A DNA stretch of 64,000 bases from a virus: IMG/VR virus record IMGVR_UViG_3300009425_000015, positions 1 to 64,000 of that record. The stretch is one strand, 5' to 3'. Under the pieces are notes generated by a model. The model searched no databases and was not told the origin of the DNA. It worked only from the letters and a program-made list of their open reading frames with translations. Below, piece after piece: positions 5,765-58,171 of this stretch. The first letter of the stretch is position 1. Every line of letters starts with the position of its first letter. Both the position numbers and the translations under genes were made by a program.

Positions 5765-5965
5765 CTATTTAATCACCTCCATGTCCTCAATTAAATGTAT
5801 TTCATTTCCCCAAGGCATATATACATCAACGACTTTATATATCTCACAGTCTAAAACGCCGAACAATGAAACATTGTCTTGCGGTGTTGAAGCCCTTGGT
5901 TCCGACAGTAAGACGCCTACAGTACCGGGATGATAGTCACAACAAACAATGTCACCAATATTCAT
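5765..5965 (-). CDS. SH3/KOW-like small protein
   Basis: MNIGDIV...GVLL...MEVIK. Confidence 0.6.
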   Translation of the reverse strand: MNIGDIVCCDYHPGTVGVLLSEPRASTPQDNVSLFGVLDCEIYKVVDVYMPWGNEIHLIEDMEVIK

Positions 5966-6092
5966 ATAAACAACTTTCTTTCTGCTATCTGGAGCGTTGC
6001 TGCTCTCAACTTCTGCAATCATTATTCGAAACGCCACAAAGAAAGTCAAGGTTTATTTCAATTAATCGTAAAACCTCAATAATAACGCTTGC

Positions 6093-8402: not shown

Positions 8403-8429
8403 TATTATAGTTTCTTTCGTTGTAATGTG

Positions 8430-8502
8430 TGGAGCATCCGAGAATCGAACTCGGAACCAGCGGATTAAAAGTCCGATGCGCTACCAATTGCGCCAATGCT
8501 CC
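8430..8502 (-). tRNA. tRNA-Lys (anticodon UUU)
   Basis: GGAGCAT/ATGCTCC acceptor stem, GCGC D-stem, CTTTTAA anticodon loop, TTCGATT T-loop; CCA not encoded. Confidence 0.93.
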
Positions 8503-8946: not shown

Positions 8947-9156
8947 CTAAGTACCTCCCCGTCTTTCGATAACTCGGAATTGACGGGGGGTGTACCCCCA
9001 CCAATGACTATAGTCATACGGTTTTCCACTTTGCCATTTGACGTACACTTTTGAGTGAAAATCCCACCCTAGCTCGTCCTCTATTCTTGCGATAATGCCA
9101 AGAAATATACAATTGTGATGCGCGCAGTGACTCTTAACCAAGTCTCCAACCTTCAC
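8947..9156 (-). CDS. SH3/KOW-like MKVGDLV protein without the DNA repeat
   Basis: MKVGDLVK...GII...VKW...FRVI; different codons (AAG GTT GGA GAC) from the array junction. Confidence 0.65.
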   Translation of the reverse strand: MKVGDLVKSHCAHHNCIFLGIIARIEDELGWDFHSKVYVKWQSGKPYDYSHWWGYTPRQFRVIERRGGT

Positions 9157-11142: not shown

Positions 11143-12207
11143 CTAATCATCAGTATCGCCTGCCAAGATTGTAACGATATAATCACTAACAGAACTACCG
11201 TCTACCTCTGCCTGGTGGAGCTTAATAGTATTATTAATATCACCAGCACCTAACACTGTCCACATTTTCATCGCAACCTCTGAAGGTAATGTTAGAAAAT
11301 ATCTGGCTAGATTGTTAACGTGCTCTTGAGGAAGCTCATCAGCAAAAGTATTTGCTCCAGCGAATTTATCAACGATGGCAGTGTGTTCATTAATTCCGAA
11401 GTTGGCTGTTCTTTCAATTTCACCCTTGATTAAAATATCCTCTACTGACACTTGCCTGTCATAAGTCGCAACAAAATCGTTAAACGATACGGCAGCCTCA
11501 AAGCCTACAAATGCGCTAGCGAGGGGATACAGCGGTGCTGTGGGTACCTCCCCATCCAACAGCTTAGAAGCGGTGAGACAGTCGCTTAAACGCTCCCACG
11601 AACGTCGTGAGGGGTATACCTTGTTTGGCTCAAAGTCATCGGAATGTTCTAGGTGGTTCCTATTGTGGTTAATAAAATCCCAGACTATAGTGTGGACTTT
11701 TCCACTAGCCCAAGTCATCCAGTCCTCTAACGAAGGTTCGATGTCAAAAACAGTCCACCTGTCTAATTCAGCAGGATCCATCTCGCCGACTTGGTATTGA
11801 GCACTGTGTTCTCCACCATTAACAGCAGCGAATACTAGCGTATCCTTATGCAGCGTGTGCCCATTCAACTTGCGACTATCTGTAAGCTCAAATATACCCT
11901 GGCGAACCTCCAGCGTTGCCCTGTCAACTTCGTCAAGAAAGAGAACCACCGGATTATCGCATGCTTGTTTGAACCAATCAGGCGGATTAAACTGTGTGCT
12001 GTTACCTTTCACCGAAGGAAGTCCAACCAGATCGCCTTCAGTCATCTGAGAAGCTCGGCGCTCAACGAGATTCATGCCGATTCGTTCGGCTGTTTGATAT
12101 ACCACTGTAGATTTGCCTATACCATGCCGCCCTCGCAAAAGGACTGGCTTGCGTACCGCAGTCACGTAATCCACAATTTCAGAAAAAGTCTTAAAGTCAA
12201 CTGCCAT
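11143..12207 (-). CDS. MoxR-like AAA+ ATPase
   Basis: Walker A GRHGIGKS, Walker B LFLDE, MDPAELDR, PSRRSW. Confidence 0.88.
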   Translation of the reverse strand: MAVDFKTFSEIVDYVTAVRKPVLLRGRHGIGKSTVVYQTAERIGMNLVERRASQMTEGDLVGLPSVKGNSTQFNPPDWFKQACDNPVVLFLDEVDRATLEVRQGIFELTDSRKLNGHTLHKDTLVFAAVNGGEHSAQYQVGEMDPAELDRWTVFDIEPSLEDWMTWASGKVHTIVWDFINHNRNHLEHSDDFEPNKVYPSRRSWERLSDCLTASKLLDGEVPTAPLYPLASAFVGFEAAVSFNDFVATYDRQVSVEDILIKGEIERTANFGINEHTAIVDKFAGANTFADELPQEHVNNLARYFLTLPSEVAMKMWTVLGAGDINNTIKLHQAEVDGSSVSDYIVTILAGDTDD

Positions 12208-13091: not shown

Positions 13092-13430
13092 TCACCAACC
13101 GTAATCAGGGTAATCAGGTATGATAGGTTGAGTTTCTTCTTTTGTCTTTGTGCTGAACCTCTCATCATGAGCCTCAACAATGCAGATAGTCTCTATTACG
13201 ACGTCGCCTGAGTATCCCCCCCTATACACTCTCATCTTAGTGCCTCCGTTTAGGGTGATATAAGGATCCCTGTCTTTCACAAACTCAACAAAACTCTTTG
13301 CTGTAAATGTCTTAACGCCTCTTCCCGCGCCGTAGCGGCTGGCCTTTTTTTTCAAAGTAAATTTGCCACCCTCACACACGACACGCTTTCGTTCGTCTTC
13401 AGAGACTAAGTAAGAGATTGAAGCAATCAC
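13092..13430 (-). CDS. hypothetical protein
   Basis: GTGA coupling with the upstream gene. Confidence 0.6.
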   Translation of the reverse strand: MIASISYLVSEDERKRVVCEGGKFTLKKKASRYGAGRGVKTFTAKSFVEFVKDRDPYITLNGGTKMRVYRGGYSGDVVIETICIVEAHDERFSTKTKEETQPIIPDYPDYGW

Positions 13431-14101
13431 TTTCTAATGCTTCGATGCTTTTTGATGTTTGCCTCAAGTATGTAATACTGACGTGCGGATCCGAAGGGGA
13501 GAACCTTGTATACCTTCGATCCCTTCTTCGCATGTCTGACTGGCAAGGCATTAACCTCTAGCACCACCGCAAGGGTGTCTGTTGCTGGGTTAAAATAACA
13601 ATTGTTGTTTTCGATATAAAATTCTTTAAGTGATTTTGCAGTCCTACGAAACTGTACTATATCTCCCTGCTGGAAGACAGGTTTGGAAAAATGAGCCTCT
13701 AAGATTTTCTCTGCATACTTGTTCTCGCATACGCTTCTATACTCTTTTTCGGGGGGGATATAACCGTATGGCGCGGCACTACCGAATTTGGTAGCATGCT
13801 CTGCTACCCGTTGGACAACAGCCGTGTAGTATCCTTCTTTTTTATAATATGACAACATAAGCGAGAAAGACTCCCTAACCTTCTCGTTCGTCATGAAGAA
13901 TCCTCGCCATCGCAACTTTTCTTCAAGTGCCGATGTGTTGTATCTTTTTTCAACCTGAGAAAGCACTTCAAGTTGGCGATCAGAAAGAGTGCCATGGCTG
14001 TTCGTATGGTGAAGTACGCTTTCTAAAAAGCCTCTATCCCACGGTTCCAGCGCGTTGTGCTCGACACCTGACAACAACTCTCTCATTCTTTCAATCTTCA
14101 T
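13427..14101 (-). CDS. hypothetical protein with a C-terminal SH3-like domain
   Basis: FLES...LSDRQ N-terminus; FQQGDIVQF...YKVLP C-terminus. Confidence 0.7.
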   Translation of the reverse strand: MKIERMRELLSGVEHNALEPWDRGFLESVLHHTNSHGTLSDRQLEVLSQVEKRYNTSALEEKLRWRGFFMTNEKVRESFSLMLSYYKKEGYYTAVVQRVAEHATKFGSAAPYGYIPPEKEYRSVCENKYAEKILEAHFSKPVFQQGDIVQFRRTAKSLKEFYIENNNCYFNPATDTLAVVLEVNALPVRHAKKGSKVYKVLPFGSARQYYILEANIKKHRSIRK

Positions 14102-14349
14102 TCCATTTTCCCACTAATCCATTGTGACGGGATTCTGACATTCTTTCTATCAATCCACAGTTTCTTTCCGATGCTTGTCTCACGATGGCTTCTTACTATA
14201 AGTACCTGGATTTGGCCAACGAAGAGACCGCCGTAGCCATGTTCATCATACTTTTCCTTGGTTCTCTCTCTGCCTAGACAGACACCCAAAATAACTGTGC
14301 CAACGACGGTATGGAACGCTACTAAATCTCCTTTTTCATACATCCCCAA
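14098..14349 (-). CDS. SH3/KOW-like small protein
   Basis: YEKGDLV...GVCL. Confidence 0.6.
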   Translation of the reverse strand: MGMYEKGDLVAFHTVVGTVILGVCLGRERTKEKYDEHGYGGLFVGQIQVLIVRSHRETSIGKKLWIDRKNVRIPSQWISGKME

Positions 14350-14572
14350 CCCCTGATACCAGCATAAGCCACTTCCCCCTAATCATGACAATCCTCTCGC
14401 TACCTAACAACTTTACCATACAACTATATTCATCTGGGTGTGTATTTTCCTTAAACGCATAATGTATCCTCTGCAAAACAACACCCGAAGCGTTCGGAAA
14501 ATCAGGGGTGTACTCCTTGCACTGCACTAAGTCTCCCTGCTCAAATGGTTTGTGATCTCTCCTGCTTAACAT
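14336..14572 (-). CDS. SH3/KOW-like small protein
   Basis: FEQGDLV...GVV...LMLVS. Confidence 0.6.
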   Translation of the reverse strand: MLSRRDHKPFEQGDLVQCKEYTPDFPNASGVVLQRIHYAFKENTHPDEYSCMVKLLGSERIVMIRGKWLMLVSGVGDV

Positions 14573-14753
14573 ACTTTAACTCCCTCCTATCCATACTTAG
14601 GCTCTTTGCCCCGTCAGAGCACCACATTACCGAAAAGAAATGGTTGTGAATCTTCGCGACAACAATCCCTATATCTTTTCGTCTCCGACGATGATAGCTC
14701 AACCCCTTAGAGTAGGCAGATAGTTGAACCAAATCACCGACTTTCATTTTCAT
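14541..14753 (-). CDS. array cassette, SH3/KOW-like
   Basis: MKMKVGDLVQLS...GIVV...VMW...ELKYV. Confidence 0.75.
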   Translation of the reverse strand: MKMKVGDLVQLSAYSKGLSYHRRRRKDIGIVVAKIHNHFFSVMWCSDGAKSLSMDRRELKYVKQERSQTI

Positions 14754-14911
14754 TCGCTCAACACTTTCAAGGCACTAGATCTGACACTAAGTAACCTGTA
14801 AACTGATGATTGAATATCCACTCTCCATCCACCGTATTCGTTACGATACATTTTTGTCACAATATAAATCGCTTGATCAAGTTTCCTTCTTACCAGGCTA
14901 CCGACTTTCAC
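14750..14911 (-). CDS. array cassette, 53 aa (not in the track)
   Basis: MKVGSLVRRKLDQAIYIVTKMYRNEYGGWRVDIQSSVYRLLSVRSSALKVLSE. Confidence 0.75.
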   Translation of the reverse strand: MKVGSLVRRKLDQAIYIVTKMYRNEYGGWRVDIQSSVYRLLSVRSSALKVLSE

Positions 14912-15074
14912 TGATTAACTCCAAATCTCTTTTGGGAGTTGATGTTCTCACATTGTTGTCCCTGAACCACATAACTTGTTTATATTCCTCTGTACCGGGT
15001 ATCTCTCTGATTATTGTCCCGTACCAATTGTGCCAATTGGGATGATTGTATTTTACTAAATCACCGACTTTCAC
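14898..15074 (-). CDS. array cassette, 58 aa (not in the track)
   Basis: MKVGDLVKYNHPNWHNWYGTIIREIPGTEEYKQVMWFRDNNVRTSTPKRDLELISESR. Confidence 0.8.
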   Translation of the reverse strand: MKVGDLVKYNHPNWHNWYGTIIREIPGTEEYKQVMWFRDNNVRTSTPKRDLELISESR

Positions 15075-15255
15075 TTATCACCTCCAATTTAGAAACCGCT
15101 TCAATTGTTTTCAACCCAGCTAAATGTCCTGATCCTGGGTGGGTATGTGACCAAAGCACATGACAGTGGGCGGGTTGGAGTTGTCTGGTTTCAACAATAA
15201 TACCAGTTCGTAGGGCATCAATAGATTTATGTCTTACCAAGTCACCGACTTTCAC
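15061..15255 (-). CDS. array cassette, 64 aa
   Basis: MKVGDLVRHK...GIIV...VLW...LEVISESR. Confidence 0.8.
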   Translation of the reverse strand: MKVGDLVRHKSIDALRTGIIVETRQLQPAHCHVLWSHTHPGSGHLAGLKTIEAVSKLEVISESR

Positions 15256-15415
15256 TGATTAACTCCAATTGAATATGATCTGACGGTATACGTCCGGTTC
15301 CTAATCCCGTGAACCACTTAATATCTACTGACGATACTGGAGAGAATGGTATCACTTTTATAACGACTCCTATACCGCTGTCTGACTTCCATCTCACTAA
15401 GTCACCGACTTTCAC
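15242..15415 (-). CDS. array cassette, 57 aa (not in the track)
   Basis: MKVGDLVRWKSDSGIGVVIKVIPFSPVSSVDIKWFTGLGTGRIPSDHIQLELISESR. Confidence 0.8.
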   Translation of the reverse strand: MKVGDLVRWKSDSGIGVVIKVIPFSPVSSVDIKWFTGLGTGRIPSDHIQLELISESR

Positions 15416-15599
15416 TGATTAACTCCAAAACATCTTTAAGCATGTCTAATTCTTCGTACATTTCTTCAGTATTGCTGCCATCGCACCACAGCACAAGGAA
15501 GGTGTGCGATTCGTATTCATCGAATTCTTCTCGAAGAATAATCCCTGGAATAATAGAATGCCAGGAATATGCTCGAACAACCAAATCACCGACTTTCAT
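15402..15599 (-). CDS. array cassette, 65 aa
   Basis: MKVGDLVVR...GIIL...VLW...LELISESR. Confidence 0.8.
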   Translation of the reverse strand: MKVGDLVVRAYSWHSIIPGIILREEFDEYESHTFLVLWCDGSNTEEMYEELDMLKDVLELISESR

Positions 15600-15777
15600 T
15601 TATCACCTCCAGGTTGGTCCTATGACAAAACTCAATCTTGCCGTCAACCAACACATCGTAATAGTCCTCTTTGCCTCGCCATGGCTTATCGGGATCAGTG
15701 TTTATGACGGCAGATACCAATCCAACGCGCTTGGTTTTCCAAGGGTCCAGCCATCTTACCAAGTCACCGACTTTCAC
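15586..15777 (-). CDS. array cassette, 63 aa
   Basis: MKVGDLVRW...GLV...LEVINESR. Confidence 0.8.
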   Translation of the reverse strand: MKVGDLVRWLDPWKTKRVGLVSAVINTDPDKPWRGKEDYYDVLVDGKIEFCHRTNLEVINESR

Positions 15778-15931
15778 TGATAACCTCCAGGGAACGCGCT
15801 GTTGTCCAGAAGACCCCGTAATCGCCAGGCCAACATACTTTCACAGCCGTGTTGGGCGATGGGCGGGCGGTTTCAATGACGACGCCGATGACGGTGCCAC
15901 TGTGCTTTTTTACCAAGTCACCGACTTTCAC
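15764..15931 (-). CDS. array cassette, 55 aa (not in the track)
   Basis: MKVGDLVKKHSGTVIGVVIETARPSPNTAVKVCWPGDYGVFWTTARSLEVISESR. Confidence 0.8.
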   Translation of the reverse strand: MKVGDLVKKHSGTVIGVVIETARPSPNTAVKVCWPGDYGVFWTTARSLEVISESR

Positions 15932-16094
15932 TTACAATCTCCATTAAGCTTATCGACATAGGGCAATCATATCCGTAAACAAACACCCAATCATTCTCTT
16001 CCTCCAGCCTCCGAACAAGATATATGCCGTTGGCGGCCGGCAGGAAACGGCAGTTTCCCTCGATTTTACACCTGATAATGTCTCCCAACTTCAT
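15918..16094 (-). CDS. first cassette of a run, 58 aa (not in the track)
   Basis: MKLGDIIRCKIEGNCRFLPAANGIYLVRRLEEENDWVFVYGYDCPMSISLMEIVSESR. Confidence 0.75.
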   Translation of the reverse strand: MKLGDIIRCKIEGNCRFLPAANGIYLVRRLEEENDWVFVYGYDCPMSISLMEIVSESR

Positions 16095-16329
16095 ATAGAG
16101 TCAATCTCCCTTTGGTTATGCCCTGTATAAACAATGTCTCATCGTCCTCCCTAATGCTTACCATGACGTTTTCTAGTCTTTCGGGGGGTGGGCTTCTCAA
16201 GGCGTATTTCCACAAAATAGCACCATTACGCGCTGCTCTCCTACCCAGAAGCACACCAAGGGCATGATTGGGCTTAAAATAAACACAATCCCCAACTCTC
16301 AGCTCTATCTGCTGGACACTTTTACTCAT
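16066..16329 (-). CDS. SH3/KOW-like small protein
   Basis: LRVGDCVYF...GVLL; promoter TTGACT-17-TATAAT at 16328-16356 overlaps the ATG, so the start is uncertain. Confidence 0.6.
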   Translation of the reverse strand: MSKSVQQIELRVGDCVYFKPNHALGVLLGRRAARNGAILWKYALRSPPPERLENVMVSIREDDETLFIQGITKGRLTLYEVGRHYQV

Positions 16330-16370
16330 TATAGCTTATCTTTTGTTTGAAGTCAAATAATTATTAATTT

Positions 16371-16703
16371 TTATCTTACTCTCGCTTGCGGACAATAATA
16401 GCAAAGTCTGCGGGGGTGGTACGCACAATAATACCCATATTCCTCGTACCTATCTCCGTACCAAACTCCATGTTGCGGATAACACTCTAGCCACTCACCG
16501 TCAACCACTATCTGCTCTGTGGGATGCCTAGACTGGTACATCGGACTCCAACTACAGACGTGTAAACTTCGGCAGTCGCCGTATTCTTCACATACCCATT
16601 CCGTGTGATGGTAGTCTGGATTCTTTGGATCACATGTGTCGTCGTAATGTATGTTACATCCCATGAAGAACAGCATAGACACAAGTATTGTAATTAGTTT
16701 CAT
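16371..16703 (-). CDS. Cys-rich putative lipoprotein
   Basis: MKLITILVSMLFFMGC lipobox-like signal; ATGA coupling. Confidence 0.65.
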   Translation of the reverse strand: MKLITILVSMLFFMGCNIHYDDTCDPKNPDYHHTEWVCEEYGDCRSLHVCSWSPMYQSRHPTEQIVVDGEWLECYPQHGVWYGDRYEEYGYYCAYHPRRLCYYCPQARVR

Positions 16704-16921
16704 TGATTTACTTTCTTGAGGCTCGACGCCATTATCTTGCGATGTTCCAATTGCGATCCACCTCCCTTCTTGCACCACAACACAGAACAAAGATAATCTG
16801 TTTGACGAAACACTGCTGACTCTACCTTCATAACAAGTCCATGGCGTTCGGAGGTATCACTGAGATTACAAAAACTGTGCTGATGCACTACCAAATCACC
16901 GACTTTCACCAACTTTTTCAT
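16700..16921 (-). CDS. array-type cassette, SH3/KOW-like
   Basis: MKKLVKVGDLVV...GLV...VLW...LKKVNQ; repeat core at 16896. Confidence 0.7.
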   Translation of the reverse strand: MKKLVKVGDLVVHQHSFCNLSDTSERHGLVMKVESAVFRQTDYLCSVLWCKKGGGSQLEHRKIMASSLKKVNQ

Positions 16922-17083
16922 CTGTTTCTCCAACTGTCTATCAACATCTGGCCGGCCCACAAGCCGATTGCAATAGTTATCACGCTTCCTAGAAATTCCA
17001 TTGTCTTTCCTCCATTTGATATATCAATCATATATCATTTTTTCTCATATGTCAAGCTTATTTTTTATAAGCCTTGTTACATG

Positions 17084-17157
17084 TACCCCGGACAGGACTC
17101 GAACCTGTAACCCTCGGCTTAGAAGGCCGATGCTCTATCCAATTGAGCTACCGGGGC
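17084..17157 (-). tRNA. tRNA-Arg (anticodon UCU)
   Basis: GCCCCGG/CCGGGGT acceptor stem, GCTC D-stem, TCGGC-CTTCTAA-GCCGA anticodon arm, TTCGAGT T-loop; CCA not encoded. Confidence 0.95.
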
Positions 17158-17311
17158 TTATTGTTTTACATTCGCTTCTTACTCGCCAGAATGTTCTCTC
17201 CCTCTCAAAATCATAAAATTTTATTGTCCCACCCTCTATGTTGTCATAAAGCATGATGCCAATCTGTGTGTCATAGGTGCTCCGCCAAAGAATCAAATCA
17301 CCGACTTTCAC
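17135..17311 (-). CDS. array cassette, 58 aa, with its stop inside tRNA-Arg (not in the track)
   Basis: MKVGDLILWRSTYDTQIGIMLYDNIEGGTIKFYDFERERTFWRVRSECKTISPGSSIG. Confidence 0.7.
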   Translation of the reverse strand: MKVGDLILWRSTYDTQIGIMLYDNIEGGTIKFYDFERERTFWRVRSECKTISPGSSIG

Positions 17312-17501
17312 CTGTCACCACCTTTAAATCATAATCCCACACGTTGTTCCCTATGGTACCGTTGTTCCACAATACCTTGAACGTCTTGTTGGTGCAACCC
17401 ATGCCCTTGTTGTGTCCGACATTTTTAATAAGCACACCGAACCGATCAGTGTGAAATATCCGGTTTGGATGGTTGTCTTTTACTAAATCACCGACTTTCA
17501 C
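17298..17501 (-). CDS. array cassette, 67 aa
   Basis: MKVGDLVKD...FKVLWNNGTIGNNVWDYDLKVVTGESR. Confidence 0.8.
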   Translation of the reverse strand: MKVGDLVKDNHPNRIFHTDRFGVLIKNVGHNKGMGCTNKTFKVLWNNGTIGNNVWDYDLKVVTGESR

Positions 17502-17664
17502 TGATTACCTCCAAGTAATTTTTAGACCAGTCATTCCGGCTGTGGTTGTCATCGAGCCACTGTACAGATACTTGGCCGGAGCAGATTTTAACCACGATAC
17601 CCATAGACTTCCTGTATTTCTTCCAGCCTTTATCTCGTGGTAGCACTAAATCACCGACTTTCAC
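17488..17664 (-). CDS. array cassette, 58 aa (not in the track)
   Basis: MKVGDLVLPRDKGWKKYRKSMGIVVKICSGQVSVQWLDDNHSRNDWSKNYLEVISESR. Confidence 0.8.
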   Translation of the reverse strand: MKVGDLVLPRDKGWKKYRKSMGIVVKICSGQVSVQWLDDNHSRNDWSKNYLEVISESR

Positions 17665-17839
17665 TTAACACCTCCATGGCATGATAGCTCCACACACAGT
17701 GACCTATTGCAGTTATAACATGAATATCTGGATTCTCAAAGGGGCATTTCTCGTAACTCGGACATACGCCGCACCAGCCGACTCCCGTTACGATACCGGT
17801 ACGCCCTTGCCCATTTTGTACTAAGTCACCGACTTTCAC
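17651..17839 (-). CDS. array cassette, 62 aa
   Basis: MKVGDLVQN...GIV...MEVLSESR. Confidence 0.8.
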   Translation of the reverse strand: MKVGDLVQNGQGRTGIVTGVGWCGVCPSYEKCPFENPDIHVITAIGHCVWSYHAMEVLSESR

Positions 17840-17842
17840 TGA

Positions 17843-17944
17843 TTAACTCCAAGAATCTTGTGTCACAATCATCTTCACAACATGCTTGTCGCATGCCATC
17901 GAAGCGGCGATGTTTGGATTTTCGTCTAATACAAAAATATTCAT
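17843..17944 (-). pseudogene. truncated pyrimidine-dimer DNA glycosylase-like gene (N-terminus only)
   Basis: MNIFVLDENPNIAASMACDKHVVKMIV, then an out-of-frame join to a cassette tail; GAGG RBS. Confidence 0.7.
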
Positions 17945-17947
17945 TTG

Positions 17948-18205
17948 TTACCTCAATCCTTCGAGTCGCTCACTTTCGTAAGCACCACTCAAGTCAATCG
18001 AGTGGGTAGGATCCTCTTGGTTGATGTCTGCCCACACTCGCAGGGTGTATTTACCCTCATAGAATTCGATATACGCTATCGCACCGAATTCTTCTGCGCA
18101 ACTCCCCATACCCGTGATATATATATCACATGAGGTGTCGACACTGCCATTGTTGATCGAGTTCCCAATTCTAGTACTAACACTCATTATACCCTCCATC
18201 CACAT
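17948..18205 (-). CDS. hypothetical protein
   Basis: GGAGG RBS before MSVSTRIG. Confidence 0.6.
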   Translation of the reverse strand: MWMEGIMSVSTRIGNSINNGSVDTSCDIYITGMGSCAEEFGAIAYIEFYEGKYTLRVWADINQEDPTHSIDLSGAYESERLEGLR

Positions 18206-18271
18206 TTATTGCAATAGGTTGTCCAACTGAATATCCATGTATATCCGCAATTTCCACAAGGACTACCGGAA

Positions 18272-18439
18272 TTATTGATAAAAACTGATGACTTCAAAAT
18301 ATTTTGCACGATTTGCTCCACTAAGTAACGTATAATGTTTTCCCCATAGACGGATCCAACCACCGTCCCCATGGTTAATCCAAGCGACAACACCGTATAT
18401 CTGTGTACGGCGGCTCCACACTAAATCACCGACTTTCAC
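18272..18439 (-). CDS. array cassette, 55 aa, with a broken 3' junction
   Basis: MKVGDLVWSR...GVV...FEVISFYQ. Confidence 0.75.
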   Translation of the reverse strand: MKVGDLVWSRRTQIYGVVAWINHGDGGWIRLWGKHYTLLSGANRAKYFEVISFYQ

Positions 18440-18581
18440 TGAGCGACTCATATTGGGGGTTCCCAACCCAGAAGTCCTGCCTAATCCCACAACTCCACAG
18501 TACTGTTCTGCGACCGAATCCATGGGTCAGGATCACGAGTCCAACATTATCGAGCTTTCTTACCAAGTCACCGACTTTCAC
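18426..18581 (-). CDS. array cassette, 51 aa (not in the track)
   Basis: MKVGDLVRKLDNVGLVILTHGFGRRTVLWSCGIRQDFWVGNPQYESLSESR. Confidence 0.78.
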   Translation of the reverse strand: MKVGDLVRKLDNVGLVILTHGFGRRTVLWSCGIRQDFWVGNPQYESLSESR

Positions 18582-18768
18582 TGATTACCTCCGAAGACTG
18601 TTCTATTTGTCTGCCCAACTGGATGATCCTGCCAGCAACAAGTAATTCCCAGTCATAGTTTAGCCAGTCGGCACGAGGGAGTTTCCTGATCAGCAGGGCG
18701 ATGCCCGTTGGCAATCCCCAGTGTCTACAACAGCCGGGTGGTAAGTTTATTATGTCACCGACTTTCAT
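18568..18768 (-). CDS. array cassette, 66 aa (paralogue of 19973..20173)
   Basis: MKVGDIINL...CRHWGLPTGIALL...SSEVISESR; promoter TTGACT-17-TATTGT at 18796-18824. Confidence 0.8.
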   Translation of the reverse strand: MKVGDIINLPPGCCRHWGLPTGIALLIRKLPRADWLNYDWELLVAGRIIQLGRQIEQSSEVISESR

Positions 18769-18820
18769 TTGACTTCTCCAAATCTTCATATTAACACAAT
18801 ATCAGTTGTTTTCTTAAAAG

Positions 18821-18973
18821 TCAAGCATTATTTTTACTAATTATCTCCAACTCTGCGGCGATGGCCCAATACCACTTACCGGATGGATAAAGCACGCGAT
18901 AGTTGTTGAACATAATCTCTACTAGTAACCCTACGCCGAAATCGTAAGTCTCAACTAAATCACCGACTTTCAT
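18821..18973 (-). CDS. array cassette, 50 aa (not in the track)
   Basis: MKVGDLVETYDFGVGLLVEIMFNNYRVLYPSGKWYWAIAAELEIISKNNA. Confidence 0.75.
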   Translation of the reverse strand: MKVGDLVETYDFGVGLLVEIMFNNYRVLYPSGKWYWAIAAELEIISKNNA

Positions 18974-18987
18974 TTTCTCTTGCCTTG

Positions 18988-19431
18988 TCAAGTAGTTTCT
19001 ATTACTTTTCGGAGTCTCGCCCTCATCCTATCCTCATCCCAGTCGAGAGTCTCGCTATGACACTCGGTGATGATCTCTTTGATGAGCCTGTCGTATAATC
19101 GCTTATCTTCGTCGTCGAGGATGTCCTCTTCTCTCCATGTAATAACCTTTTCCAGCCGCTCAATCTGCTCTTCAACTCTTTCTGGTGTATTGCCGCCACA
19201 AATATGACAAGCATCATCTTTACAAGAGGAGTCGCAGTAACAATCTGGGCATCCCATTCCGCCTTCTTGATAGGCAACACAGTCTTCTTTTAGATGCTTA
19301 TAAGGATATGGATTGTCCGCCAACTTTTGTAATGTTTCTTTGTGATCGTCAATAACTTGTTCTGCTGCTTTTCGGCATAGTGATCGCAGTTTGATGTTTT
19401 CTTTTTTTAGTTTTCGGTTTTCGTCAGTCAT
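18988..19431 (-). CDS. Cys-containing hypothetical protein
   Basis: 147 aa; GAGGA RBS; CxxC clusters. Confidence 0.65.
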   Translation of the reverse strand: MTDENRKLKKENIKLRSLCRKAAEQVIDDHKETLQKLADNPYPYKHLKEDCVAYQEGGMGCPDCYCDSSCKDDACHICGGNTPERVEEQIERLEKVITWREEDILDDEDKRLYDRLIKEIITECHSETLDWDEDRMRARLRKVIETT

Positions 19432-19493
19432 TTTATTTCTCCTCGCAACTGTCCATAAGTATCAAACTCTTGTTCGCAAGTTAACACAGTGTG

Positions 19494-19811
19494 TTAACTT
19501 TCGCAACCATTCTTGATTGCAGCGTTTGGCCCTGATCTCCTTGCTTTTGGGAATAGGGTGTTTTCTTTTTTTAGATCTCGTACCAAACTATCCTCAATTG
19601 GCTCTGGATGGATACCTTTTGTCTCTTTGTTTGGTAAGCGTTCTATTTCGCTGAATATTCCCTTTATTGCGACGTTTGCAAAGTGCTCACAACTGTCTTC
19701 CAATGTAGTATCCCTGTCATAGACAGTGCAAAAACCAGTCTCAGCTGTGCAGGTTGATCTAAGATAAACACAGTTTCTACAATGGCGCTTGACCAAATCA
19801 CCGATTTTCAT
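19494..19811 (-). CDS. chimeric cassette: MKIGDLVKR head fused to a Cys-rich domain
   Basis: CRNC...C...C...CEHF follows the repeat-encoded head. Confidence 0.65.
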   Translation of the reverse strand: MKIGDLVKRHCRNCVYLRSTCTAETGFCTVYDRDTTLEDSCEHFANVAIKGIFSEIERLPNKETKGIHPEPIEDSLVRDLKKENTLFPKARRSGPNAAIKNGCES

Positions 19812-19986
19812 TTACAACCTTCAAATCGTAATCCCATACGCGATTGCCAATGGTGCCGTCTTGCCACGAGACTTTGAAACTCTTGTTTAGGGCTGTAGGC
19901 ACGTTGAGATACATTTCGGTTAGAAGCACACCAATTTTCTTTGCTCGCCCAGGATAGTTATAGTAAACTAGATCACCGACTTTCAT
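19798..19986 (-). CDS. array cassette, 62 aa (paralogue of 17298..17501)
   Basis: ...FKVSWQDGTIGNRVWDYDLKVVNENR. Confidence 0.8.
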   Translation of the reverse strand: MKVGDLVYYNYPGRAKKIGVLLTEMYLNVPTALNKSFKVSWQDGTIGNRVWDYDLKVVNENR

Positions 19987-20173
19987 TGATTACCTCCGAA
20001 GATTGCTCTAGCTGTCTACCGAGTTCAATATATCTGCCATCAACGAAGACTCTCCAGTCATACTCCAACCCGTCATTGCGTGGTAGCTTCTCAACCAAGA
20101 GCGCGATGCCCGTTGGCAGTTCCCAATGGCGACAGGCACCTCTTTGCAACCTTATTAAGTCACCGACTTTCAT
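19973..20173 (-). CDS. array cassette, 66 aa
   Basis: MKVGDLIRL...CRHWELPTGIALL...SSEVINESR; promoter TTGACA-16-TATACT at 20214-20241. Confidence 0.8.
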   Translation of the reverse strand: MKVGDLIRLQRGACRHWELPTGIALLVEKLPRNDGLEYDWRVFVDGRYIELGRQLEQSSEVINESR

Positions 20174-20861
20174 TTGGATAATCCTTTTTTAAGAATTTCT
20201 GACTTACCTATTTAGTATATCATATATTTTCCAATTGTCAAGCGATTTCGATTCTAGAAAACTTAATTTTTTTACCATGCTCCGCGATAAGATTCTTCCT
20301 TTTCTTCTCACAGATTTGCTTGGTGGCATATATATGCTGTCTTTTGCCATCACCTACTCTATAAGCCAAGTGGTATATCATTCAATATCTCCCGATACTT
20401 GATTAAAGCTAGTTCTTTTTTATACTTTATCTACGAAAGTGTCGCGGGGGCGAAACAACTGCTTCACTCTTGCTAAAGCTTTTTGTGGTAGCGTCAATGC
20501 CCTGTAAACATCGTAACATGTAGTGGACATCAACATATCCGCTGGACTGACTGTCCTCTTAATATCCTCTCGTGGCTCCAAGTGTACATCTGTATTCTTC
20601 ATGAATTCTTTTTCCTCCTTTTTTGTTTTTATTTGTAAGAAGAATATATTATATACCCAATTCAGCCAAGATTAAAGCGAATAAACAATATTGTAGCAGG
20701 AATTCAGTAGGTTGCCTAGCTAAGAATTAGGGACACACCCAATATGAAAACGCCCAATACCAGCAATTTCAAAAGGACTAACCAAGTTAACATATTTCTT
20801 TTTTCAACTTTCCTATAATATAGGATTTAATCGTGTAAGTCAAGCCAAAAGACAATAATAA

Positions 20862-21068
20862 TTAAATTCTCTTTCTCTTACTGATTATCTTCCACCTTTG
20901 GGTACCCCACCACCGAGAATCACCAGAGTTATCCAACACTAGTATATCTTTTAGCGTGGAATTGACGTCTAGAATTATCCCATGTTGCAAGACTTCCGGC
21001 TCAGGGAGAGAAGTGTTGAAGATATAACTAACTACTAGATCACCTATTTCATATTCGTCTTCGTTCAT
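20862..21068 (-). CDS. SH3/KOW-like small protein
   Basis: YEIGDLVV...GIIL...WKIIS. Confidence 0.6.
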   Translation of the reverse strand: MNEDEYEIGDLVVSYIFNTSLPEPEVLQHGIILDVNSTLKDILVLDNSGDSRWWGTQRWKIISKRKRI

Positions 21069-27016: not shown

Positions 27017-28897
27017 CTATGCTTCTTCAAACTCTGCATCAATGATATCGTCATCTTGCGAGTCTTGAGTTTGTTCTTCTGCTGGCTCTGCTTGTTGTGC
27101 TGCCTCATACATTTTCTGGGTTGTCGACTGAACTAAGGCAGTAAGAGAGTCAAACTCCGAATTAATTTCAGACGGGTTATCTGAACCCTGAAGTGCAGCC
27201 TTCGCAGAAGCTATCGCTGTTTCCATTTTTTCGATGGAGCCAGCTTCAAGCTTTTCAGAATTTTCATCCATGAGTTTGCGGGTTTGAAATACTAGGGACT
27301 CCAGAGAATTCCTCTTTTCTACGTTCTCTCTTTTTTGTTTGTCTTCCTCCGCGTAGCGCTTGGCGTCCTCTACCATGCGCTCGATGTCTTCTGCGGACAT
27401 CGATCCTGATCCCTGTATCTTTATCGACTGCTCTTTGGAAGTTGCCTTGTCCTTAGCAGAAACGCTAACAATGCCATTTGCATCGATATCGAAAGTTACT
27501 TCTATCTGAGGCACTCCGCGGGGTGCGGGTGGAATTCCATCCAGTTTAAAGACACCGAGCCTCTTGTTGTCTGCCGAAAACTCCCTCTCCCCTTGCAAAA
27601 CCTTAATGTCGACTGCTGGTTGGTTGTTCTCCGCAGTAGTGAATACCTGAGACTTCGAGCATGGAATAGTGGAATTCCTCTCTATCAGTCTTGTCATGAC
27701 GCCGCCCATGGTTTCTAAGCCTAGGGATAGGGGGGTGACGTCCAATAAGAGAATGTCTTTCACCTCTCCCGAAAAAACTCCTCCCTGTACCGCTGCGCCT
27801 AGGGCAACAACTTCGTCTGGATTCACCGATGAACTGGCGCTTTTTTCAAATAATTTCTCAACCGCCTGACGGACTAAAGGTATCCTAGTTGAACCTCCGA
27901 CGAGCAAGACTTCATCAATATCCTTGATAGAAGCTGACGCATCCTTCATTGCTTTTCGCACTGGATCTAGAGTCTTTTCTACCAGCTCATCTATCATTTG
28001 TTCAAACGTCGATCGAGTGAGAGAAACGTTCATATGCTTAGGGCCCGACGCATCAGCTGTCAGAAATGGCAGATTTATATCTGTCTGTTGCGCGCTTGAT
28101 AGTTCAATCTTTGCCTTCTCTGAAGCCTCTTTAAGCCTTTGCAACACCATCGGATCTCCAGATATGTCAACTCCCGTCTCCTTCTTGAATTCGCTCACAA
28201 GCCAATCAATTAAAATTTTATCAATATCGTCGCCGCCCAAATGAGTATCCCCGTTTGTACTCAACACTTCCACAACTCCGTCTGCGATGTCTAATATAGA
28301 AACATCGAACGTTCCTCCACCGAGATCATACACGGCTATCTTGCGCTCTTTTCCCTTGTCAAAGCCGCATGCCAGAGCTGCTGCAGTAGGTTCGTTGATA
28401 ATTCTCCTGACTTCCAGGCCTGCTATCTTTCCAGCATCCCTAGTTGCCTGACGCTGAGAGTCGCTGAAGTATGCCGGGACTGTTATAACAGCCTCTCTGA
28501 CTTCTTCCCCCAAGAAACTTTCCGCTGCTGCTTTGAGTTTTAAGAGCACTTGTGCGCTGATTTCCTGAGGGGCGTGCAACTTCTCGCTAGCTAGAACTTC
28601 ACACATTCCAGAAGAAGACTTCTTCACCGAGTAGGGCATGGACTCTGCTTCGGCTGATATGTCATCGTACTTCATACCCATAAATCTCTTTACTGAAAAA
28701 ATGGTATTTTGCGGGTTCGTGACTGCCTGCCTTCTGGCTGGACTGCCCACTAGCCTATCTCCTAATTTCGTATATGCAACCACTGACGGGGTTGTCCTCG
28801 CCCCCTCTTCGTTTGTAATTATCTGGGGAGTTCCAGACTCCATGACTGAAACGACACTGTTCGTTGTTCCTAAATCTATTCCTATAACCTTTGACAT
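27017..28897 (-). CDS. dnaK: Hsp70 chaperone DnaK
   Basis: [27 protein letters not shown]-terminal IDAEFEE. Confidence 0.98.
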
Positions 28898-36354: not shown

Positions 36355-37122
36355 TTAAATTACCACATCTGCAATGCCATGCTCGATAGCTTCTTCTGCA
36401 GACAGGTATACGTCAACATTCTTTTTCAAAAATTTACGAATTCTCTTCTCAGAAAGGTTTGTCTCAGCTGCTAAACACTTAACATACTGGCTTTGGATCC
36501 ACCTAACTTCTGATATTTCATTCTCCATATTTAGGAAGCTTCCGTGATAGCCGCCGTTAACACTGTGTATCATTACTCGACAATTGGCGCCGATTTCCCT
36601 TTTGCCTTTGGTGCCAGCTGCTAGCAAAAGTACTCCGGCAGACATTACCTTCCCCATCCCAACGGTGTTTACATCGCAGGTTTCCTTAACCAGGTTTATA
36701 GTGTCGTATATCGCAAACATCTCCGAGGCAGTGCCGCCGTTTGTTGAAATTAAAAAACTCATCGACTTTCTTGATTTGGACTCTTCTAAAGTCTCCTCTT
36801 CAATTTCATCGCTTGACTCGTCATTATCTCGGGCAGGGTGTGCGTGATCTTTAAGGAACATGAGAGACTGAACAATTTCGGATCCTTTTTCTTCAGTTAA
36901 ATCCCCGTAGAGAGTCATACTTCTCAGTAGCGATGGTTCTGAGCTTGGCTGCTCTATGTTGTTGATTATTACAAACCGTTCTTCGTCAATTGACGAAGCT
37001 TCGTCAAATTTGAAGTCGTCATCAATAATGATATCTTCCACCTTCCCTTCTTTCGATGATGGCTTCCCCTTGCTCTTCCTATCCTTCGATTTTTTATCAC
37101 TACTTTTATCTTTTTCTTTCAT
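36355..37122 (-). CDS. clpP: ClpP-family protease subunit
   Basis: STNGG, VMSAG (Ser), RVMIH (His), DVYLSAEEA. Confidence 0.9.
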   Translation of the reverse strand: MKEKDKSSDKKSKDRKSKGKPSSKEGKVEDIIIDDDFKFDEASSIDEERFVIINNIEQPSSEPSLLRSMTLYGDLTEEKGSEIVQSLMFLKDHAHPARDNDESSDEIEEETLEESKSRKSMSFLISTNGGTASEMFAIYDTINLVKETCDVNTVGMGKVMSAGVLLLAAGTKGKREIGANCRVMIHSVNGGYHGSFLNMENEISEVRWIQSQYVKCLAAETNLSEKRIRKFLKKNVDVYLSAEEAIEHGIADVVI

Positions 37123-38754: not shown

Positions 38755-39101
38755 TCAATCATCTCCTTTGCTATCATATCAAACAGTCCTTGCTTTTCTT
38801 CTGGAGAGAGATCGAAAATACCAAATAATTCCTCTCCCTCTCTTATTGCCCTTCTGGATTTTGCAATCCTTCTCTTACCATGCCTCCCCAACTCATACTT
38901 ATACTCTGTTAAGTAGTCAATTATCCTCTCATCGTTATTTAGGTATCCAGTTATCATCCTCTGAAAAAACTGAATTTGCGTAATGCCATCATGTCTAAGT
39001 CTTATTCTTAAATCGCCATGGCGCTTATCATCGTCGACGAACGTTATCGTTTTTCCCTCTTTCCCATATCGATATTCTTTCTTCTCCTTGTTATCTGACA
39101 T
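38751..39101 (-). CDS. hypothetical protein
   Basis: Coupled ORF. Confidence 0.7.
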   Translation of the reverse strand: MSDNKEKKEYRYGKEGKTITFVDDDKRHGDLRIRLRHDGITQIQFFQRMITGYLNNDERIIDYLTEYKYELGRHGKRRIAKSRRAIREGEELFGIFDLSPEEKQGLFDMIAKEMIE

Positions 39102-55499: not shown

Positions 55500-56480
55500 C
55501 TATTTGTTCGAATCTGAAACAATTCTATTAAAAGTTGTAAACAAGTCGAACAGCGAAACTTCCCCAAGTCCGTCTTTCATCATTTCAGTGCGGAGCCCAC
55601 TTTTGTTGAATTCTGGATGAAATTCTGTCATGCATTCTCGTACTTTAGCGTGTGTCTGAGCGGATAAAGACGGTACGTACAGCTGCATCATCTTATAGTT
55701 TTCCCTGACGATGCTTTGGTTCTCAACGACAGTGTGGTGCACCTTAAGCGGGGCATCTTGAGAAAGACAGTCTTTCACAATATCGTCTAAGAAATAGCTC
55801 TTCTCTTCAGATAAAAAAGGAAACCTCTTGGCGACGGTACCCATTCCCACGCCCATTAAGCCAGGCAAGTTATCGCTAGTGTCTCCAACCATCGCTTTCG
55901 CTAAGGCAAAGTTGCTTGGGTGTACACCGTATTTTTTAATGAGAGTTTTCTTATTCAATATCTCTTTCTGAGTTGGGCGGTATATCAAAGTTTTATCATC
56001 CAACAACTGAAAGAAGTCCTTATCCGATGATACTATTACCTTTTCCCAGTCTTCGTGTGATGGATGCTGGACAACTGCTGCAATGATGTCATCTGCCTCT
56101 ACGCCGTCTTCCAAAAGCTGAATTACAGGGGTACAATTCAAGTATTCCAATACTCTCGATAGTTGCCACAACTTATTTGTCGCTTCTTGTTCCTCTGTCA
56201 TAGTCCTTACATCTCTATTTAGCCTTACCCTGGCGGCGCGTGGGACAGGGGGAGAGCGCCCTGCTTTATAATTTTTGTTAATGGACTTTCTTTTTTTTGA
56301 TCCACCCTCACCGTCCCAGACAACAACCACCTTGTCAGGCTTAATTTTTCTAACTAGCGTATTCAAGATTTTAAGAAATCCCTTGCATCCGCCTACGGGC
56401 TGGCCATTCGCTGACATGCTAGGATCTACAATGTAAGATCTTGAGAATTGGTTCAATGCGTCTACTACCATCAGTCTCAT
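55500..56480 (-). CDS. 5'-3' exonuclease / flap endonuclease (T4 RNase H / PolA N-terminal-like)
   Basis: VVD, WDG, YKAGR, EADD, SSDKD, GDTSDNLPG. Confidence 0.92.
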   Translation of the reverse strand: MRLMVVDALNQFSRSYIVDPSMSANGQPVGGCKGFLKILNTLVRKIKPDKVVVVWDGEGGSKKRKSINKNYKAGRSPPVPRAARVRLNRDVRTMTEEQEATNKLWQLSRVLEYLNCTPVIQLLEDGVEADDIIAAVVQHPSHEDWEKVIVSSDKDFFQLLDDKTLIYRPTQKEILNKKTLIKKYGVHPSNFALAKAMVGDTSDNLPGLMGVGMGTVAKRFPFLSEEKSYFLDDIVKDCLSQDAPLKVHHTVVENQSIVRENYKMMQLYVPSLSAQTHAKVRECMTEFHPEFNKSGLRTEMMKDGLGEVSLFDLFTTFNRIVSDSNK

Positions 56481-56544: not shown

Positions 56545-57672
56545 CTATTCTTCTGTAGTTCCAGTCTCAAGATCATAAAAATCTGAAGCCTTCCCTGTCC
56601 TTTCGGAAAACTTTTTAATAACATCGTTATCCATCAAGTGCAGTACTCTTGCTCTAAACTTTTCGTTTTCCAGCTTCTCAACCCAACCCTTGCGTTGGAA
56701 CTTTTCCTCCGAGCCGTCCTCATAAACAATCGAAAACCAAGCTCCAGTCTGTTTTAGGCTTTCAGAAATCTGAATTGCATCAAACCAACTTTCCCTATCT
56801 TGGACACCGATTTCTCCACTGTCTCCCCAAAGTATCTTAAAGTTGCAAGTCCTACCTGCCGTGCCGAACCTAGATTTCTCTATCTTCGCCTTAACTTCTG
56901 ATCCAATCCTGAAGCCGTTAACGTCCGTCACATACGATGCTTTCGCTTTTCTCCCAGTAAGCCAAATCCTCAAAGAGTAAGAGTAAGGCAAGGACTTGCC
57001 TCCCGGTGTCATATATGGGGTTGTCATCGCTTCAGACGGAGAACGAGTTATATTGGTTTTTAGCTGATTCAATACCAGCAATGTTGCATCAGCATTAGCG
57101 ATAGGAACAACCAACTTGGACATACCCTTCGACAAGATTCTAGCCTTCTTCCCGACTTCCGAATTCGGGTTAAAATCTCCGGCAATGTCTGAAACCGAAG
57201 GAGTCAAAGCGAGAGAGTCCCAAATAAACAAAAGCCTATTACCAGTCGCTAGCAAGTCTTCTATTGTCTCCAGTACAAATTCTACAGATTGTGCCTGAGT
57301 GTACAACAACCTCTCTAAATCGCAGCCTGCTCTCTCCAGGAAGTTAGGATCGATTGCAGACTCAGAATCGAAATATACGACGTCGATGCCCATCTTTTGG
57401 GCATTTGCAGCAACCTGAGCTGCCATAAAGCTCTTGCCCGTAGATTCCAGGCCTGCAATCTCAGATATTTTGCCCACTGGGACACCTGCCAACTTGCCCT
57501 TGCAAGTGATGGAGTCCAGCCACCTAGATCCTGTCGGAATCCAATCCTTTACCTCAGTGGGGTTGTCCTCCTTGAGACTATAGGCAACAGTAGAGCCTGC
57601 CCTCTTGTTAACCAAGGACTTCATTTGCTCGAATGAAACCTTGCCTGTTTTAATTTTGCTAATTTTAGCCAT
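56545..57672 (-). CDS. recA: RecA/UvsX recombinase
   Basis: IPTG, GLESTGKS, DSE, WDS, NQL, TPGG. Confidence 0.93.
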   Translation of the reverse strand: MAKISKIKTGKVSFEQMKSLVNKRAGSTVAYSLKEDNPTEVKDWIPTGSRWLDSITCKGKLAGVPVGKISEIAGLESTGKSFMAAQVAANAQKMGIDVVYFDSESAIDPNFLERAGCDLERLLYTQAQSVEFVLETIEDLLATGNRLLFIWDSLALTPSVSDIAGDFNPNSEVGKKARILSKGMSKLVVPIANADATLLVLNQLKTNITRSPSEAMTTPYMTPGGKSLPYSYSLRIWLTGRKAKASYVTDVNGFRIGSEVKAKIEKSRFGTAGRTCNFKILWGDSGEIGVQDRESWFDAIQISESLKQTGAWFSIVYEDGSEEKFQRKGWVEKLENEKFRARVLHLMDNDVIKKFSERTGKASDFYDLETGTTEE

Positions 57673-57703
57673 CTTATACCCCCTGTCGTACGATTGTGAA
57701 TCT

Positions 57704-58171
57704 CTAATTATTAGTGTCCTCTGCCACGTCAACTAATTCAATTTCAAAATTTAAAGTTTTGCCTGCCATTGGATGATTAAAATTCAACAATACAGTACCC
57801 GAATCACGAATCTCCGCAATGGTTGCCTGTACCGGAGCATCCTGCGGGCCCGTGCCATGCACAATATTGCCGACATTAAATTCGAAGTCATCTGGAAACT
57901 CTTCTTTTGGAATTTCCTTAAAAAGTTCCGGATTTTCCACCCCATATGCCTCGGTTGGCTTAAGTGTGATATTCTTAGTCTCACCAATTGCCATATCGCG
58001 GACTGCAGTGTCAAAGCCCTCAATTAAAACACCAGAGCCCACCTCGAAGGTAAGTGGCTCGTCTCTAGTCCTAGAGCTGTCGAATTCCGTTCCGTCCGCG
58101 AGAGTGCCCACATAATGGACGCTCACAGTCTTGCCTTCTGTCAATTGCTTATTCTTATTTTTTTTAGACAT
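57704..58171 (-). CDS. FKBP-type peptidyl-prolyl isomerase (SlyD/SlpA-like)
   Basis: VHYVGTL, FDSS, EAYG, FNHPMAGKTLNF. Confidence 0.93.
   Translation of the reverse strand: MSKKNKNKQLTEGKTVSVHYVGTLADGTEFDSSRTRDEPLTFEVGSGVLIEGFDTAVRDMAIGETKNITLKPTEAYGVENPELFKEIPKEEFPDDFEFNVGNIVHGTGPQDAPVQATIAEIRDSGTVLLNFNHPMAGKTLNFEIELVDVAEDTNN

Follow-up and report, generated by a model that had tools for sequence, protein, structure and literature searches.

Small genes in the hyperplastic regions of T4-type phages are found in promoter-early stem-loop (PeSL) cassettes, in which an intergenic element of ~100 bp combines a terminator stem-loop, an early promoter and a Shine-Dalgarno (SD) sequence, and each cassette forms its own transcription unit (Arbiol et al. 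2010, PMC2839356; Comeau et al. 2014, PMC4122927). PeSL mini-circles have been shown by inverse polymerase chain reaction (PMC2839356, PMC4122927), and T4-type recombination requires patches of <50 bp (PMC2839356). Modular shuffling of this kind is the closest known system to the subject of this report, an array of small genes joined end to end by a dual-coding junction of ~33 nucleotides (nt), which appears to be its analogue in coding sequence. The array lies in a stretch of 64,000 nt, hereafter the window, that comprises positions 1 to 64,000 of the IMG/VR virus record IMGVR_UViG_3300009425_000015. We read the region from 13.4 to 21 kb, with a probability of about 0.72, as a hyperplastic and probably early-transcribed region, in an uncultured and large marine phage, of barrel-gene cassettes that are shuffled by homologous recombination at this portable junction. 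Literature searches by peptide and by descriptive terms found no description of an overlapping mini-gene array.

The array resembles the PeSL regions in that short conserved elements flank small genes in a variable region of a large lytic phage, the genes on either side of that region are conserved, the element brings expression signals with it and homologous recombination is the proposed means of exchange. Whole-gene indels and replacements between close relatives are bounded by the element in both cases (P ~2.5e-5 for the array), and a T4-type phage is the carrier of the one and probably also of the other. In contrast to the PeSL, the array element is dual-coding and has neither hairpin nor promoter, strong promoter-like sites being found at run heads only. 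The genes of the array would be co-transcribed and probably translationally coupled, with translational rather than transcriptional autonomy, and all belong to one fold; and while PeSL mini-circles have been demonstrated, circles derived from the array are hypothetical.

Integrons consist of unrelated cassette genes separated by folded attC hairpins and served by the IntI tyrosine recombinase. Like them, the array is made of promoter-proximal single-gene units, each with a repeat, and gain, loss and reordering affect complete units; unlike them, it has no attC-type hairpin, no integrase was found, coding sequence forms the repeat and the cassettes encode barrels homologous to one another. CRISPR loci (clustered regularly interspaced short palindromic repeats) contain non-coding direct repeats, non-coding spacers and cas genes, whereas the "spacers" of the array are open reading frames (ORFs) under purifying selection that are predicted to fold as barrels, and the array's repeat is made up of overlapping start and stop signals. 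According to the modular theory of Susskind and Botstein on phage evolution (lambdoid boundary sequences), homologous exchange between unrelated modules is steered by short conserved gene-boundary sequences. Such linker or boundary sequences of lambdoid phages occur sporadically between functional modules, whereas the array has one standard connector, used 20 times in the genome and hundreds of times across the lineage.

Positions 14734 to 20173 contain 18 exact copies of the junction core, RTGAAAGTCGGTGA, every one of them on the minus strand, against an expectation of 0.01 from shuffles. Two near copies, GTGAAAGTCGGTAG at 14898 and ATGAAAATCGGTGA at 19798, complete the 20 that had been counted in a preliminary description of the window, and an independent repeat finder recovered a 25-nt core family of 19 copies. 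An ORF of 50-105 amino acids (aa) starts at each core copy; typical cassettes have 50-70 aa and the form MKVGDLV...LEVISESR*, and the contig holds about 22 small barrel-type genes altogether. They are grouped into four runs (20173-19494, 18768-18272, 17839-17135 and 16329-14541, here A to D) and two single genes (18973-18821 and 16909-16700), the array being interrupted by a tRNA-Arg gene and unrelated genes (Table 1). The succession of nine cassettes described earlier in 14541-16094 was found again, with the qualification that the last join (14750/14747) is not of the 14-nt type described below. Sigma70-like sites with at least 10 of 12 matches number seven in the region, all on the minus strand, and several of them sit just upstream of run heads (20241, 18824, 17055 and 16356), in agreement with the preliminary description; a repeat scan of the window revealed no repeated promoter elements bracketing the runs.

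At 14 internal junctions the end of one gene and the beginning of the next overlap by exactly 14 nt, as had been proposed. The upstream frame closes with ...LEVISESR-TGA, while the downstream gene starts 11 nt ahead of that stop with GTG/ATG AAA GTC GGT GAY, preceded at a distance of 5 nt by the SD sequence GGAG(G/T)T, which is spelled by the L-E-V codons of the upstream gene. The junction of ~33 nt is thus situated inside two ORFs and carries an SD sequence, a start and a stop. All spacings from one start to the next equal 1 mod 3, and successive genes therefore rotate through the three frames. When eight junctions were folded as single-stranded DNA, z-scores relative to shuffles ranged from -0.71 to +0.79, and no conserved stem, hairpin or inverted repeat was present in these eight.

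Comparison with related phages indicates that whole cassettes have been gained, lost and swapped at the junction. Two loci (L005 and L007) are 100% identical over ten cassettes save for one 176-bp cassette missing in L007, a deletion whose ends coincide exactly with two junctions and that is bounded by the 20-nt direct repeat ATGAAAGTCGGTGATTTGGT. A second one-cassette indel separates L075 from L080 in an otherwise identical stretch; here the adjoining cassette is an 82% allele, and 100% identity resumes at the next junction. In comparisons of loci with an identity of 95% or more, 8 of the 12 homology breaks fell ≤23 nt from a motif start, and in a second, deduplicated analysis all four ends lay ≤25 nt from a motif start in 5 of 10 breaks, against a background of 4.1% of the sequence being that near to a motif (P ~2.5e-5). 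The closest relative among the matches listed (G001) is syntenic with the window on both flanks of the array (74-87% aa identity) and has few counterparts of the window cassettes, which are 35-61% identical and stand in a different order. These sister-phage indels and the order in G001 bear out the earlier expectation that relatives differ in the number and order of their cassettes and that the breakpoints fall at the junction. For most window cassettes, counterparts of 50-90% identity are spread over 9 to 46 loci among the matches listed, and the scattering of these counterparts in other orders is exchange rather than divergence in place. Across the loci, a single family is followed by 20 distinct junctions, which lead to 17 different families. 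Within the window, the similarity of two paralogue pairs (~70% at the nucleotide level) stops exactly at the junctions, and their neighbours are unrelated. In a seawater run (X1, record 3), one 281-nt contig of low depth joins a cassette of the FKV family to one like 17651-17839, unlike the order of the window.

The strongest competitor of homologous shuffling, which we nevertheless consider unlikely, is that the cassettes are ordinary tandem paralogues that arose by duplication and divergence, that the junction has been kept only for the sake of two protein ends, an SD sequence and a stop, and that rearrangements at its boundaries are an unselected by-product. Codon usage at the junction speaks partly for this explanation. 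Within the 14-nt overlap a site that is synonymous in one frame always falls on the first or second position of a codon in the other, and the T of GGT also serves the upstream TGA, so that dual coding fixes all bases of the overlap if both peptides matter. At overlapped starts (n=556) AAA, GTC and GGT are used in 90%, 85% and 98% of cases, compared with 88%, 67% and 83% at non-overlapped starts (n=112) and 52%, 21% and 30% in cassette bodies. Codon constraint is therefore relaxed upon loss of the upstream overlap, as the paralogue explanation would have it, yet stays above the level of the bodies, run-initial copies using GTC and GGT three times more than these. Just past the overlap, TTR is the L6 codon in 76% of copies (35% in bodies) and GTA is preferred at V7, which is the usual bias of AT-rich 5′ ends and in keeping with simple paralogy, but which fails to explain GTC at V3. 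The lack of structure in the junctions is likewise what is expected of translation starts. The two frames thus explain junction conservation largely, not wholly, and the earlier suggestion of conservation at the nucleotide level stands for the excess of GTC and GGT where no upstream gene overlaps, not for the greater part of the invariance.

The simplest account of the leftover codon conservation is history, namely that run-initial copies were drawn from the same circulating pool, because 19 of 27 families have internal members in one genome and members at a run head in another. That the same families occupy both positions with many different neighbours across phages, that exact cassette indels and allele swaps distinguish otherwise identical genomes, and that counterparts of the window cassettes are scattered over many contigs in other orders all argue for exchange and against paralogy as a sufficient explanation. 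Start codons also differ by position, with ATG in 81% of run-initial genes and GTG in 59% of internal genes. This split fits coupled initiation, or ribosome hand-over, at internal starts, with the Ser/Asn codon in the tail of the upstream gene as a confounder.

The cassettes themselves are protein-coding genes under purifying selection. In the two best-sampled families from related phages, the ratio of nonsynonymous to synonymous substitution (dN/dS) in cassette bodies was 0.135-0.139 at dS >1, and in three other families it was 0.33-0.58. AlphaFold (AF2) models were obtained for two unrelated cassettes, 19973-20173 (pLDDT, the predicted local distance difference test score, 91.8) and 17651-17839 (pLDDT 81.7). 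The former is a five-strand barrel and the latter has the same topology, the order in both being b1, b2, a variable loop, b3, b4, a 3-10 turn and b5, with MKVGDLV modelled as b1 and LEVI as b5. VIA-align gave Z values for the two models of 6.6 and 7.4 with PsaE, 5.8 and 7.2 with the Spt5 KOW domain, and 5.2 and 6.0 with the PcrA Tudor domain; NusG KOW, ribosomal eS4 KOW, UvrD Tudor, NdhS and R67 dihydrofolate reductase (DHFR) were further matches of both, Z for the key set being 5-7.4. Foldseek searches of PDB and BFVD returned no match at E ≤0.001, E-values being weak, and ten cassettes had only sub-threshold hits in Pfam and PHROG (Chromo 15 bits, SH3-C_UBE2O 16, R67 DHFR 12, phrog_16289 17). 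The models thus support a shared fold of the SH3/KOW/Tudor-like small-barrel class, as the preliminary description had supposed from the strand pattern; since Z values are middling, the assignment is limited to the class and extends to no specific superfamily. A profile search collected 483 metagenomic homologues, all "hypothetical" and none with a Pfam domain, and the Protein Atlas offered unnamed viral clusters only; metagenomic homologues of 19973-20173 are ~80% identical to it.

Small early β-barrel proteins of T4, GoF, MotB.1 and Frd.2, have an LSm-like fold (Kim et al. 2025, PMC12152347). They share with the cassettes small size, an early-region location, an unassigned function and an SH3-like or LSm-like barrel that suggests RNA or protein binding, and are a possible analogue at the protein level. 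The T4 proteins differ in that they are not in overlapping arrays and have no MKVGDLV or LEVISESR ends. The cassettes probably act early in infection, and we infer that their products are small binders for host takeover or counter-defence.

We propose that host-type sigma70 promoters head short co-transcribed runs, in which the last-strand codons L-E-V-I of one gene spell the GGAGGT SD sequence of the next, and the tail S-E-S-R-stop overlaps, out of frame, the beginning of that gene, GTG/ATG-AAA-GTC-GGT-GA, encoding M-K-V-G-D of the first β-strand. Every cassette accordingly has the same DNA at both its ends. The junction would then serve both as a set of portable translation signals, presumably with translational coupling, and as a homology patch for general homologous recombination by the RecA-type recombinase and exonuclease of the phage or by those of the host. 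Expected outcomes would be deletions of units, insertions via excised circles or co-infecting genomes, allele swaps and reordering, with frames kept throughout. A RecA-family recombinase and a FEN-type exonuclease are encoded in the window, as the preliminary description had claimed (Table 1), and a DnaB-type helicase is also present on the contig; of the genes named in that description, a single-stranded DNA-binding protein of the PF00436 type was not found in the contig, a gp32-type one not having been searched for. Recombination would be driven by homology rather than by a site-specific enzyme, a preference based on the failure to find a recombinase or reverse transcriptase and on the absence of a hairpin in the junction.

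Far less probable than simple paralogy is a dedicated, integron-like system, in which a recombinase would read the junction as an attC-like site and circular cassettes would be excised and integrated. Repeat-delimited single-gene units downstream of a promoter do look like integron arrays, and the indels are precise and of unit length. Their flanks, however, are plain 20-nt direct repeats, as from homologous recombination, the supposed sites sit within coding sequence, and neither inverted repeat nor hairpin is present in the junction (z -0.7 to +0.8). Furthermore, no match to tyrosine recombinases (PF00589; control positive in 14 of 14 genomes) or serine recombinases (PF00239) was obtained in the source contig (G000) or in two relatives, G001 and G003, which are 43%, 87% and 88% complete, respectively. 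The earlier observation that the window has no integrase thus holds, while an integron- or CRISPR-like system with dedicated machinery finds no support, in view of the absence of a hairpin and of any recombinase or reverse transcriptase match in these genomes. Targeted hypermutation of one scaffold gene, to which conserved ends and very different middles might point, is very improbable, as there are many discrete families, each ~60-90% identical across phages and under purifying selection with saturated synonymous sites, and, in contrast to a diversity-generating retroelement, the window has no template/variable repeat pair and the three genomes, all incomplete records, gave no match to reverse transcriptases (PF00078). 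The word "hypervariable" in the preliminary description was for the same reason misleading, the variety residing in many distinct, conserved families and not in a diversification process.

Several considerations weigh against homologous shuffling at a portable junction. Breakpoints at the junction are partly expected, because alignments run into any shared sequence, and the polymorphism was seen in sister phages rather than in the source genome. In assembled contigs from four seawater runs many joints end at junctions, but the shorter side, of 22-32 nt, is the repeat itself, and these were not counted as rearrangements. Two frames, a stop codon, an SD sequence and AT-rich 5′ codons explain most of the invariance of the junction, and any selection for shufflability is hypothetical. 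The contigs are incomplete, so that a recombinase cannot be strictly excluded. Finally, the cassettes belong to no Pfam or PHROG family and their fold matches reach only middling Z, so that any function given to them is conjectural.

The junction pattern, GGAGNTNATNARTGAAAGTCGGTGA, occurs in at least 119 IMG/VR contigs, with 831 cassettes among the matches listed (median 61 aa, mostly with SESR or NESR tails). The ATPase encoded at 11143-12207 was found in 39 loci among the matches listed, at up to 80% identity, and the non-array genes common to junction-bearing loci and the window include, besides this ATPase, an HNH-like gene, DnaK, GroEL, RecA and a methyltransferase. Because junction-bearing contigs have these genes in common, they represent one viral lineage, and the array is a feature of that marine phage lineage rather than a peculiarity of the source genome. 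The source contig measures 80 kb (its completeness value given above is from CheckV), while relatives are about 158-190 kb long, G001 and G003 being those of 158-159 kb. G003 encodes a T4-type gp23 capsid protein (202 bits), and no gp23 was seen in the source contig or G001, both of which are fragments. Megablast and blastn of the window against 50,697 deposited phage records gave nothing relevant, tblastn of one cassette gave no match, and an IMG/VR pattern search with two flanking proteins gave no relatives, which were reached by the junction pattern only. Among ~185,000 species genomes the junction is present in five, all contigs of metagenome-assembled genomes (MAGs; L127-L131) attributed to Deltaproteobacteria, Flavobacteriales, Legionellales and WOR-3. 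These contigs are probably phage DNA mis-binned into bacterial MAGs, and because they span unrelated phyla we name no host. Parts of the region are found, with full identity, in short contigs of seawater metagenome runs, and none of the public runs listed as containing the region is an RNA run.

A bolder extension of homologous shuffling, which we regard as tentative and rather doubtful, is that the junction is a selected universal connector and the cassettes are frame-safe mobile units, circulating, perhaps as mini-circles, among co-infecting phages of the whole marine lineage and forming a fast-turnover combinatorial library of binders against host factors or defences. In either form, a phage lineage could make its accessory genes interchangeable without a dedicated recombinase, by standardizing gene ends, and one short sequence would provide a protein end, a ribosome site, a start, a stop and a patch for recombination. 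Repeat-mediated modular shuffling of the PeSL kind would thereby be extended into coding sequence. The signature GGAG-N7-RTGAAAGTCGGTGA can be used to search marine viromes for hundreds of cassette families, which make up a large, untouched set of stable barrels of ~60 residues and are candidates for screens of host takeover and anti-defence and for small binding scaffolds. Public short-read assemblies (runs X1-X4, window 14500-20050) consist of contigs of 150-640 nt throughout the array, many of which end in a junction. Such arrays are likely to be under-assembled and under-annotated in viromes and easily missed by gene callers, and their breakage in short-read assemblies bears on virome annotation.

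Table 1. Cassettes, signals and recombination genes of the array-bearing window.
Feature	Position	Strand	Remarks
Promoter, head of run A	20214..20241	-	sigma70-like, TTGACA-16-TATACT, extended -10, 11/12 matches
Run-initial cassette, 66 aa, CRHW..LPTGIALL family	19973..20173	-	ends ...EVINESR*; 14-nt overlap with next gene
Internal cassette, 62 aa, FKV..WDYDLKVV family	19798..19986	-	ATG start; paralogue of 17298-17501
105-aa gene	19494..19811	-	cassette 5′ end (ATGAAAATCGGTGA, MKIGDLV, one base off core); longer Cys-rich body CRNC...C...C; no LEVISESR end or standard 3′ junction
Solitary cassette, 50 aa from motif ATG	18821..18973	-	ends LEIISKNNA*
Promoter, head of run B	18796..18824	-	sigma70-like, TTGACT-17-TATTGT, TG
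Run-initial cassette, 66 aa	18568..18768	-	paralogue of 19973-20173, 72% nt; repeat family D3
Cassette, 51 aa	18426..18581	-	14-nt overlap at both ends
Cassette, 55 aa, end of run B	18272..18439	-	ends FEVISFYQ*
Relic 3′ cassette end, 47-codon open frame	17826..17947	-	...FLELISESR*; perfect junction; no MKVGD start or plausible start codon
Cassette, 62 aa, Cys-rich loop family	17651..17839	-	19 distinct homologues in family
Cassette, 58 aa	17488..17664	-	from ORF and junction scan
Cassette, 67 aa, FKV family	17298..17501	-	paralogue of 19798-19986
Cassette, 58 aa, end of run C	17135..17311	-	3′ end without LEVISESR; last 23 nt overlap tRNA-Arg
tRNA-Arg (TCT) inside array	17083-17157		followed by strong promoter-like site at 17055-17027
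Solitary cassette, 69 aa from motif GTG	16700..16909	-	no upstream gene overlapping
Divergent family member, 87 aa, LRVGDCV, head of run D	16066..16329	-	promoter 16356-16328 in front
Nine cassettes in succession	14541..16094	-	15918-16094, 15764-15931, 15586-15777, 15402-15599, 15242-15415, 15061-15255, 14898-15074, 14750-14911, 14541-14747; 7 canonical 14-nt joins
Three genes with GDLV-type barrel motif	14336-14572, 14098-14349, C-terminal part of 13427-14101	-	no nucleotide junction
Outlying family member	8947..9156	-	MKVGDLV peptide; codons GTG AAG GTT GGA GAC; no TGA overlap
RecA-family recombinase	56545..57732	-	PF00154, 122.8 bits; candidate enzyme for junction recombination
5′-3′ exonuclease, FEN-type	55500..56480	-	PF02739, 102.8 bits

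Some members of the array depart from the standard form. The 105-aa gene at the end of run A may be a chimera formed at a junction, and the open frame at 17826-17947 looks like the leftover 3′ end of a lost cassette. At the end of run C the LEVISESR end is absent from 17135-17311 as though tRNA-Arg had displaced the 3′ end of the cassette. The solitary cassette at 18821-18973 has a 79% aa match in locus L118, and its family is also represented in L075 and L080. The copy at 9156 does encode MKVGD in other codons, as described previously, and belongs to a wider set of small proteins with a (V/I/Q/K)GD(L/I/C)V first strand and no nucleotide junction (13427-14572, 16066-16329, 20862-21068, 5765-6049 and 8947-9156). 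Since such GDLV-type proteins exist without the junction, the barrel family would be older and wider than its standardized connector.

Elsewhere in the window, a tRNA-Lys (TTT) gene lies at 8429-8502. DnaK (Hsp70), GroEL and a ClpP-like protease are encoded at 27017-28897, 33471-35045 and 36355-37122, respectively, a combination of chaperones and protease that is unusual in a phage, of which DnaK and GroEL are common to several related contigs. The nucleotide and replication module is rich, with a GMP reductase/IMPDH-family gene (39091-40155), a B12-type ribonucleotide reductase (52204-54072), a large polymerase with a match to phrog_405 (41924-45367) and a separate family-A polymerase domain gene (59992-61188); the polymerase is not of the T4 PolB type. 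A 692-aa protein encoded at 47250-49328 contains putative metal-binding repeats of the MopE type (PF11617, 79 bits).

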